47,070 nt of DNA from a bacterium (GCA_021823825.1 JAKANJ010000001.1:1-47070), one strand, 5' to 3'. Positions 42,346-42,848 are shown, counted from the first letter of the stretch. The notes: generated by a model from the sequence alone, not told the origin. Made by a program: numbers and translations.

Positions 42346-42416
42346 GCGGGTATGGTTTAGTGGTAGAATGCGTCCTTGCCAAGGACGAGACGGGAGTTCG
42401 ATTCTCCCTACCCGCA
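42346..42416 (+). tRNA. tRNA-Gly (anticodon GCC), no encoded CCA
   Basis: Hand-folded cloverleaf. Acceptor GCGGGTA/TACCCGC, anticodon stem CGTCC/GGACG with loop TT-GCC-AA, T-arm GGGAG-TTCGATT-CTCCC, discriminator A. Confidence 0.92.
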
Positions 42417-42462
42417 CATTACAAAGATACCCCAGCCACCCGGCTGGGGTACCTTTGTAATG
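42417..42462 (+). repeat. 21-bp hairpin immediately 3' of tRNA-Gly
   Basis: cattacaaagataccccagcc accc ggctggggtacctttgtaatg pairs at 20 of 21 positions. No clear U-tract follows. Confidence 0.8.
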
Positions 42463-42470
42463 CTTGGGAT

Positions 42471-42486
42471 GTAGGGAGAATCGAAC
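42471..42486 (+). repeat. Inverted copy of the tRNA-Gly T-arm/acceptor 3' strand
   Basis: gtagggagaatcgaac is the exact reverse complement of tRNA-Gly 42396-42411 (gttcgattctccctac). Confidence 0.85.
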
Positions 42487-42644
42487 TGGCCGGAACGATG
42501 CCGAGCAAGGCCACGATAAATCTAGGGCACTGCGATTTTCTAAGGTCTCAGTCGAGACCAAGTAAATCGGGAGCATGCGAGGCCGTGAGGCGGGGCCGGC
42601 AGAAACTTATGAGCGACGGCGAGTAAGTTATCTGTGGCTTCGTT

Positions 42645-42691
42645 TCCCTACCCGCACATTACAAAGATACCCCAGCCACCCGGCTGGGGTA
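42645..42691 (+). repeat. Direct duplicate of the tRNA-Gly 3' end plus its downstream hairpin
   Basis: 47 nt identical to 42405-42451 (tccctacccgcacattacaaagataccccagccacccggctggggta), offset 240 nt. Degenerate similarity extends on both sides. Confidence 0.88.
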
Positions 42692-42848
42692 TCTTTGTGT
42701 AATTTAAGCGGCAACAAGGCAAGTCCAATATATAGAATAGGTGCAGGTTCAACTCAACGCATAAAGGACACTAAAATATTAAAACACAGCCAATGAATAG
42801 CACGTCAACAGCCATACTAGGCAAAATATAGCTTAAAATTATAAAAAC

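Follow-up and report, generated by a model that had tools for sequence, protein, structure and literature searches.

Small folded modules with tRNA-matched arms behind the tRNA genes of Parcubacteria-like bacteria

The window analysed here, i.e., the whole 47,070-nt stretch GCA_021823825.1 JAKANJ010000001.1:1-47070, is the chromosomal origin region of a Patescibacteria/Parcubacteria-like bacterium. It features a cluster of four tRNA genes, all identified on the plus strand by ARAGORN and Rfam: tRNA-Arg(TCG) (41580-41652), tRNA-Gly(GCC) (42346-42417; RF00005, 70.3 bits), which does not encode CCA, tRNA-Pro (43577-43652) and tRNA-Arg(CCG) (43707-43779). The cluster lies ~30 kb to the right of oriC and has the same orientation as replication. 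The DNA downstream of tRNA-Gly, in which an earlier note had described a duplicated tRNA 3′ end, belongs to a family of small (about 100-230 nt), non-coding and highly structured modules located directly behind tRNA genes in a clade of tiny groundwater Patescibacteria (Parcubacteria-like).

The tRNA-Gly locus contains a 54-nt direct repeat (42405-42458 and 42645-42698, strandless, 98% identity). The first copy comprises tRNA nt ~61-73 and the adjacent hairpin, the second a distal copy of the tRNA 3′ end and of the hairpin. The first 47 nt (42405-42451 and 42645-42691) are identical, as had been claimed, and the repeat finder likewise recovered the reported content, namely, the final 12 nt of the tRNA and most of a 21-bp hairpin. 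The proximal hairpin (42417-42437/42442-42462, plus strand) was defined by the repeat finder and by terminator scoring and is terminator-like. GC-rich hairpins followed by a T run, as in intrinsic terminators, are found only at 42428-42451 and 43952-43971, and terminator identity does not explain the arms and the core described below. The DNA between the copies opens with the inverted T-arm copy reported previously, which extends over 17 nt: 42471-42487 (plus strand, repeat finder) is the 100% reverse complement of tRNA positions 42395-42411. This inverted arm, or T part, includes the T-loop, the 3′ strand of the T-stem and the first acceptor bases. The tRNA 3′ end on the left, the proximal hairpin and the inverted arm on the right make up a palindrome (P) of ~93 nt, which forms the long P helix in the minimum free energy (MFE) fold. 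Neither a 47-nt exact repeat nor a 17-nt exact inverted match less than 100 nt apart can have arisen by chance in 47 kb.

The ~190 nt separating the repeat copies, which contain no open reading frame (ORF) corresponding to a real gene, are indeed present, but are not the single insert they had been taken for. They consist of an older module, common to other genera, and of a nested 64-nt hairpin insertion. The module (42470-42657, plus strand) is a type-A module recognized by the covariance model R1 with a score of 34.1 bits (E 3.7e-8 over 151 kb, 7.9e-11 in a local search), and comprises the arm, the junction motif GCCGGAACGATG (42489-42500), a variable region, hairpin H2 and a distal arm. The nested insertion (42510-42573, plus strand), delimited by alignment and pattern search, carries a GGTCTC/GAGACC hairpin (42534-42568). 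Hairpin H2 (42600-42634, plus strand) has the apex TGAGCGACGGCGA and features tandem G.A pairs flanking a 2-bp stem that covaries family-wide. The distal arm (42636-42657, plus strand) is composed of a degenerate T-arm (GGCTTCGTT) and of an exact copy of the acceptor 3′ strand and discriminator (TCCCTACCCGCAC). Both of the inner hairpins noticed earlier (42534-42568 and 42600-42634) were thus found, and both are common to neighbouring tRNA loci. The pattern CTTGGTCTC-N4-GAGACCTTAGAAAATC occurs three times in the window, where none is expected, once in the Gly insert (minus strand) and twice behind tRNA-Arg(CCG) (plus strand), and the loop TGAGCGACGGCGA exactly twice, in the Gly insert and behind tRNA-Arg(TCG).

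Related loci covering the same tRNA cluster were fetched by using YraN as a syntenic anchor. Loci L004-L009 are independent assemblies of the same species as the window, L010-L014 derive from a relative with an 80% identical YraN, and L015-L027 from relatives at 58-66% identity. Family counts refer to 11 related Patescibacteria loci, totalling 151 kb. Of the ~38 tRNA genes that could be assessed, 23 are followed, in this order, by their own T-loop/T-stem in inverted copy, a core, and their own 3′ end in direct copy. Six tRNA species carry modules (Gly-GCC, Gly-TCC, Pro, Arg-TCG, Arg-CCG and Lys). The inverted copy, which spans tRNA nt 54-65(-73), is exact over 10-21 nt and often runs on through the acceptor 3′ strand. 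The direct copy (tRNA nt 57-73) matches exactly over 12-19 nt and is placed 145-360 nt downstream; the direct repeat as a whole measures 10-22 nt, 54 in the window, and is tRNA sequence. Constant core and tRNA-specific sequence invariably meet in the T loop, at nt 56/57 of the tRNA.

In type-A modules, the tRNA is followed by an optional hairpin, the stem of which runs into the acceptor strand, by a complement of the acceptor and AG, by hairpin Ha (CAAGG..CTGC..CCTTG) and by CGT. The middle part consists of a complement of the T-stem/T-loop (e.g., GGAGAATCGAAC), GNCGGARCATG, hairpin H1 and CAGYGAGN′..., and the 3′ part of hairpin H2 (apex GA-NN-loop-N′N′-GA), ...GGA / GATTC, the T-stem 3′ strand, the acceptor 3′ strand, N73 and a trailer, usually containing a strong terminator. 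The conserved core includes the junction GNCGGAR / YGAGN′, H1, H2 and often the 5′ hairpin Ha. Model R1 was built from an alignment (A4) of 13 modules, in which 30 of the 36 pairs of the consensus structure show compensatory changes. Pairing is observed in 93.6% of the cells, compared with 36-45% when partners were slid in a control calculation, and the covariation score is 0.675, a value reached by no shuffle, compared with 0.07-0.16 in controls. The two-base junction helix covaries without exception; pair 56:125, for instance, is GC in 7 modules, UA in 3 and CG in 3. R1 detected 20 full-length matches in the 151 kb, including 42470-42657 and 41651-41802 in the window, and all 20 lie 0-110 nt 3′ of a tRNA gene, on the strand of the tRNA. 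Since ~15 G.U pairs are found on the tRNA-sense strand, compared with 3 A.C mismatches, the folding strand is the tRNA-sense one.

Exact-pattern scans with the GGTCTC hairpin yielded one true relative among metagenome contigs. In this Hainich groundwater contig (L002), a tRNA-Lys(TTT) gene is followed by the same layout, and ~65 nt are nearly identical to the Gly insert. The only other metagenome match (L001) is a chance match within a coding sequence. In genome contigs, the same pattern gave no match and then one chance match, in an Edaphobacter contig. Core patterns gave no match in viral contigs, and a protein database search with the translated core, aimed at spurious ORFs spanning other copies, was also negative. 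No Rfam (15) family matches the modules: only tRNAs reach gathering scores, and the weak matches are to generic long-hairpin miRNA or leader models.

Repeats of this kind might arise without any element, either by replication slippage and palindrome growth around the tRNA terminator or as an assembly artefact. Long perfect terminator palindromes are common behind tRNAs in related genomes, even at empty sites, such as tRNA-Gly(TCC) in L021, and palindrome-templated correction can extend them. However, the sequence is identical in the independent assemblies L004, L005 and L007, which excludes an artefact, and a conserved covarying core is common to several genomes and tRNAs. An explanation that dispenses with an element is thus extremely improbable.

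The suggestion of an arm that varies with the adjacent tRNA, and is not the constant end of an element, holds for all six tRNA species and also for rare T-loop variants. For instance, the T loop TCCGATT of tRNA-Gly(TCC) in L017 is matched by the arm GGAGAATCGGAC, and the T loop TTCAATT of tRNA-Arg(CCG) in L020 by the arm GAGGAATTGAAC. A compensatory change in the T stem of tRNA-Gly(GCC), which distinguishes L017 from L020, is mirrored by both arms. The inverted T part is exact in every module, including those with a decayed distal copy or acceptor complement (L026 Pro, L026 Gly and L020 Arg-CCG); it is the real tRNA, and not just the partner arm, to which it is therefore matched. Distal copies run into the trailer of the gene (CAA, CAT) and not into CCA, unless the gene itself encodes CCA, which indicates that the arms derive from the gene and not from the mature tRNA. 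The possibility that arms are made by reverse transcription of mature tRNA, in a manner resembling a primer-binding site, was rejected for the same reason. The tRNA-Gly(TCC) gene of L017 (7885-7956; also L018, 6194-6265) has a C at the universally conserved position 55, and the downstream arm matches. The palindrome may have written this T-loop mutation into the tRNA, or the reverse may have occurred. In L025 (8675-8740), convergent tRNA-Arg(TCG) and tRNA-Gly(GCC) genes carry one module each, and both distal tRNA copies flank a single shared bidirectional terminator. The Gly module of this locus has a different core (two GGGGAACC/GGGAAAACC hairpins), with an unchanged arm logic.

Modules vary in their presence. 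The Pro site is filled in L017, L020 and L026 and empty in the window, L021 and L023; the Arg-CCG site is filled in the window and L020 and empty in L017. The nested 64-nt hairpin is found in the window, L012 and L002 and is absent from L011 and L026. Behind tRNA-Arg(CCG), one unit is present in L006, and two in the window and L007. In L010, tRNA-Arg(CCG) is separated by an additional type-A unit from the hairpin by which it is directly followed in the window; the trailer past the distal copy of this unit is the proximal trailer of the window. Within L020, cores that belong to different tRNAs resemble each other more closely than do the Pro modules of L017 and L020. Orthologues of the Gly module of the window are found in L011/L012 and L026, with the same arm (CTTGGGA[A/T]GTAGGG.GAATCGAACTGG), conserved in L026 and L011, and the same distal sequence (GGCTTCG...). 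In L011, L012 and L026, the Gly direct repeat is restricted to 10-12 nt and does not include the hairpin, so that the second copy beyond ~12 nt is confined to the lineage of the window. The 47-nt repeat is therefore of recent date, the tRNA 3′ end and hairpin having been copied again onto an older module's distal arm.

This topology brings to mind an attL/attR scar, left by an integrase-carrying island or prophage that had inserted into tRNA-Gly and was later deleted to ~190 nt, which would then be a minimal cis-mobilisable element. An intact tRNA accompanied by a displaced 3′ fragment is the signature by which islands in tRNA genes (tDNAs) are recognized, as in the Islander principle (PMC4383910), and the T-loop attP core of mycobacteriophage Ms6 carries a tRNA 3′ end (PMC1762012); the “sublocation” classes (Williams 2002, cited therein) are likewise relevant. 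As in islands and prophages mobilised by tyrosine integrases, the tRNA is intact, the displaced direct fragment extends from the T loop to just past the tRNA, and tandem arrays, such as the units behind tRNA-Arg(CCG), occur, each with its own fragment. Displaced tRNA-Arg fragments in L023 and L026 further reveal tRNA-targeted recombination nearby. In contrast to such islands, the modules measure 100-230 nt, have neither integrase nor ORF, add an inverted copy of the tRNA 3′ end, and consist of a conserved folded structure. When the Islander tests were applied, the displaced direct 3′ fragment was found, integrase and cargo were absent between the copies, and the nearest recombinase, 3 kb away, is Xer-like. 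The same covarying core of ~100 nt, always small and never containing an ORF, follows six tRNA species and is found in 10 genomes or more. The Gly module has orthologues in L026, L011 and L012, the Arg(TCG) module has one in L017, and the core patterns were absent from viral contigs. An island remnant is excluded by the presence of this core behind six tRNA species and by the orthologous copies in other genera, as independent deletions would not converge. Nor was a large island found at orthologous Gly loci: L026, L011/L012, L017 and L020 all feature small modules and an inverted arm. Overall, a scar is an unlikely origin.

Fragments of a second kind of tRNA-Arg(CCG) gene adjoin the intact tRNA-Arg(CCG), i.e., the 3′ two-thirds of the gene in L023 (~7990-8050) and a 5′ fragment in L026 (~10725-10750), and whole tRNA genes appear to be replaced by recombination in this neighbourhood. 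In L027 (1562-1579), an 18-nt direct duplicate of tRNA-Pro nt ~44-61 (TAGGCCGAGTTCGATTCT), which ends in the T loop, is located 13 nt past the gene, with no module; it may be the footprint of a lost insert.

The remaining modules of the window lie behind the two tRNA-Arg genes. tRNA-Arg(TCG) is followed by a type-A module (41651-41802, plus strand; R1 62 bits, E 2e-16), the orthologue of which maps to L017 3114-3271, and by a partial second unit (41797-41905, plus strand; R1 19.9 bits); an 86-nt exact repeat (41657-41742 and 41797-41882) is present here. tRNA-Arg(CCG) is followed by hairpin 43781-43825 and by two type-B modules, both on the plus strand. Module 1 (43833-43942), defined by the repeat finder and by folding, contains an inverted arm that is exact over 21 nt (43833-43853), a single GGTCTC hairpin and the tRNA 3′ end copied in direct orientation. 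Module 2 (43992-44100; repeat finder), 96% identical to module 1, has its own, different upstream hairpin and a degenerate distal tRNA copy, and is absent from contig L006. The Gly locus had been said to share its architecture with tRNA-Arg(CCG). This is true of the arm logic but not of the core, which in type B is reduced to a single hairpin and is not significantly detected by the type-A model. The hypothesis that the Arg(CCG) modules are inverted type-A modules (GTCGGAAC on the minus strand) was dropped because, read in the tRNA orientation, the junctions at both their 5′ and 3′ ends are similar to those of type A, and the model gives no preference to either strand. Only the near-palindromic hairpin is flipped relative to the Gly copy.

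Folding predictions revealed that the isolated module may adopt a three-way structure with three parts, an acceptor-like stem, hairpin Ha, and a helix that resembles a T-stem and closes H1 and H2 (z about -9). In the MFE structure of a transcript including both tRNA and module, the 3′ half of the tRNA is predicted to pair with the inverted arm through the hairpin in one helix of 40-50 bp, and the 5′ acceptor strand of the tRNA with the distal copy (z -11 to -12). The proposed sequestration of the tRNA 3′ half by the inverted arm is thus supported thermodynamically by the predicted transcript folds. Such structures would suit a module that works as RNA, either as a functional domain within the transcription unit of the tRNA or as a small RNA resembling tRNA. 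In a first form of this explanation, RNase P and RNase Z would excise the module, with H1 and H2 in place of the T loop, and CCA would be added to it as to tRNAs. In a second, the antisense T part, 12-21 nt long, would pair in cis with the T-loop and 3′ half of the tRNA in read-through transcripts, and the module would act in regulation, in quality control, or in guiding the processing or modification of the T loop. In either form, its dissemination to different tRNA loci would be secondary.

The strong covariation, the tandem G.A motifs in internal loops (GNCGGAR/YGAGN′ and the H2 apex), the excess of G.U over A.C on the tRNA-sense strand and the co-orientation of all 20 model matches with the tRNA are consistent with an RNA role, as are the predicted tRNA-like three-way junction of the isolated module, the predicted pairings of the full transcript and the presence of rnpA in the window. 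In many loci, moreover, strong intrinsic terminators follow the distal copy, and Pro modules have no hairpin between tRNA and module. Most modules, however, are parted from the tRNA by a textbook terminator-like hairpin, no promoter-like site precedes them, and none has an Rfam match. Occupancy of orthologous tRNAs is patchy and the acceptor mimic has decayed in Pro and in some Arg modules, so that no essential or uniform function is indicated. The H2 apex is frequently GCGAAGC, which forms an unusually stable DNA mini-hairpin, and G.T wobbles and tandem G.A pairs are stable in DNA hairpins as well. As these features are equally suited to DNA, the sequence alone cannot establish whether RNA or single-stranded DNA is the relevant form. 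We consider an RNA function possible, though less probable than the interpretation that follows.

A family in which structure covaries, arms track the tRNA, copies are present in some strains and absent in others, and units nest and stack in tandem is better accommodated by non-autonomous insertion modules specific to tRNA genes, acting as a folded single strand, with arms templated from the host tRNA. We favour this reading, to which we would assign about even chances of being correct. It rests on the finding of an intact 3′ end on the tRNA body and of a second copy on the far side, with the junction at T-loop nt 56/57, as in attL/attR topology. The module would insert at the tRNA gene's 3′ end, leaving the intact 3′ end with the tRNA body and a second copy on the far side. 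Units would stack in tandem, take up nested hairpin insertions, and be lost by recombination between direct copies. The arms would be made from the adjacent tRNA gene and repeatedly re-templated by palindrome-templated copying and short gene conversion, the 47-nt repeat of the window being one such event. The folding strand would be the tRNA-sense one, present either in a read-through transcript or in the lagging-strand DNA template. The route of insertion, the enzyme acting in trans and the choice between RNA and single-stranded DNA are the parts of this scheme that we infer.

Several findings weigh against insertion modules. Neither recombinase nor transposase nor reverse transcriptase genes are found in or next to any module, and the only recombinase of the window is Xer(A)-like and in conserved synteny. 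Autonomous relatives, excision junctions and circular forms were seen neither in the related loci nor in the collection scans with core patterns, which gave one true match. Comparisons of filled and empty sites mostly involve fairly distant genomes (YraN 58-80% identical), in which loss is indistinguishable from gain. The single unit of L006 could in principle result from an assembly collapse, yet the longest exact repeat (~90 nt) is shorter than k = 141. Arm tracking and arm covariation are also expected from simple local duplication, and moving to a new tRNA species would require arms to be re-made. Finally, the conserved non-Watson-Crick motifs look more like protein-binding RNA than like a transposon end.

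More speculatively, the module might be a programmable guide-bearing unit, in which the 12-21-nt T part would be an antisense guide to the T-loop, T-stem and acceptor 3′ strand of its own tRNA, set beside a conserved protein-binding fold (the tandem-G.A junction, Ha, H1 and H2). We regard this as a rather doubtful, minority option. Such a guide would work in cis, either by directing how the T loop of the pre-tRNA is modified or processed or by sorting read-through transcripts. Alternatively, it would be a homing guide, which would bring the element to tRNA genes and take its sequence anew from every target reached.

No prior description of such modules was found in the literature searched, and the family is apparently undescribed. 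Some of its traits are those of scars from tDNA integration, others those of families of small palindromic repeats. REP/BIME, ERIC and Correia elements, Rickettsia palindromic elements and MITEs (miniature inverted-repeat transposable elements) are short, non-coding, multi-copy, hairpin-rich and intergenic, often mosaic or nested, and polymorphic among strains, and have fixed ends that do not depend on the gene next to them. Modules are similarly short, non-coding, multi-copy and hairpin-rich, with nested variants and presence/absence differences between strains, but their terminal arms copy the adjacent tRNA and every copy found lies behind a tRNA gene. In contrast to MITEs, which feature constant terminal inverted repeats and target duplications of fixed length, module arms change with the tRNA. 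REP/BIME are palindromes of 20-40 nt preceded by GTAG, which occupy hundreds of intergenic sites and go with a RAYT gene. The location of modules solely behind tRNA genes sets them apart from these, and any GTAG they contain comes from the tRNA.

Integron attC sites and the CTX-phi attP site are imperfect palindromes of 60-140 nt, conserved in structure more than in sequence, that act as one strand. In the modules, the stem formed by the arm and the distal copy likewise rebuilds a duplex copy of the target, the tRNA gene's 3′ end. However, no IntI is present, the target is a tRNA gene and not attI or dif, and the core-site consensus is not fully matched: AATCGAAC / GTTCGATT agree with the attC cores RYYYAAC / GTTRRRY at 6/7 positions, as judged by eye. 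The recombinase of the window scores 124 with the integron-integrase model, the cutoff of which is 265, and fits Xer(A).

tmRNA, YrlA, mascRNA and the gammaherpesvirus tRNA-miRNA units are tRNA-like RNAs or tRNA-linked processing units. The module is comparable to these as a mimic of acceptor and T-stem with a foreign domain, sited where tRNA-processing enzymes act. It differs in mimicking the neighbouring tRNA, in lacking a T loop, which is replaced by the insertion (the anticodon arm is not), and in having no Rfam match. Some non-canonical introns of archaeal tRNAs are located in the T arm, and transposition between tRNA genes has been proposed for them; the intron of pre-tRNA-Trp contains a box C/D guide. 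Related short inserts at many tRNAs, a junction in the T loop and an antisense segment beside a tandem-G.A motif are found in both cases, but the upstream tRNA is here complete, leaving nothing to splice, the hosts are bacteria, and the G.A motif has a 1-nt bulge instead of the 3-nt loop of canonical kink-turns. RUGAUGA/CUGA boxes, as in box C/D guide RNAs, are absent. Canonical kink-turns, remnants of group I/II introns, retrons, tmRNA and Y-RNA were also considered, and are unsupported by sequence or Rfam.

Concerning the gene neighbourhood, dnaN, dnaA, rnpA and yidC map at 8.6-13 kb and coincide with the GC-skew minimum. A type-IV-secretion-like cluster occupies 13-25 kb; this minus-strand cluster (13077-25260), which adjoins oriC and is typical of Patescibacteria, encodes T4SS-pilin, TraG/VirB4-like and PrgI-like domains and several large proteins with no family match. 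Beyond 25 kb, the gene order is comM, rpsO, the Xer(A)-like recombinase (38303-39247, conserved synteny), xth, the CCA-adding enzyme (40031-41500, minus strand), the tRNA cluster, yraN (43058-43471) and a histidine kinase, the last tRNAs lying beyond yraN. No transposase, phage integrase, reverse transcriptase or HUH gene is found in the 47-kb window. Between the Gly module and yraN, three DnaA-box-like sites (TTATCCACA, 0-1 mismatch) are clustered within 30 non-coding nt (42849-42878), ~31 kb from oriC (dnaA/dnaN/rnpA; boxes 9771-9942 and 11401-11420). The trio is almost invariant in the window, L011, L012 and L026, and may be a DnaA-titrating or regulatory site. Directly 3′ of the Arg(CCG) modules, a small Cys-rich ORF (44145-44540, plus strand) encodes two CxxC...NEIV repeats, matches no family and contains a 31-nt DNA repeat (44266/44467). 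Gene callers annotate an overlapping minus-strand ORF of 152 aa (44142-44600) in its place; a similar CxxC ORF occupies the same position in L010. Two further minus-strand ORFs (42163-42576, 137 aa, and 43554-43880, 108 aa) cross tRNA-Gly or tRNA-Arg, together with the modules, in antisense direction. Although the former is annotated as a gene in the public assembly L004 (6659-7072), both are almost certainly spurious.

Patescibacteria have tiny genomes with few repeats, and yet more than half of the tRNA genes in this neighbourhood carry a conserved folded module, the arms of which are rewritten for each tRNA. In practical terms, modules break assemblies around tRNA clusters and create spurious ORFs, such as the 137-aa ORF mentioned above, and would escape any island finder for which an integrase is mandatory. 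If mobile, they would be the smallest tRNA-gene-targeting elements seen, and the question would be how a gene-less element of 100-200 nt gains target-specific arms. If they function as RNAs, they would represent a new class of tRNA-linked structured RNAs able to sequester or replace the 3′ half of a tRNA. Were the T part to act as a guide, modules would constitute a new class of tRNA-directed guide system in bacteria.

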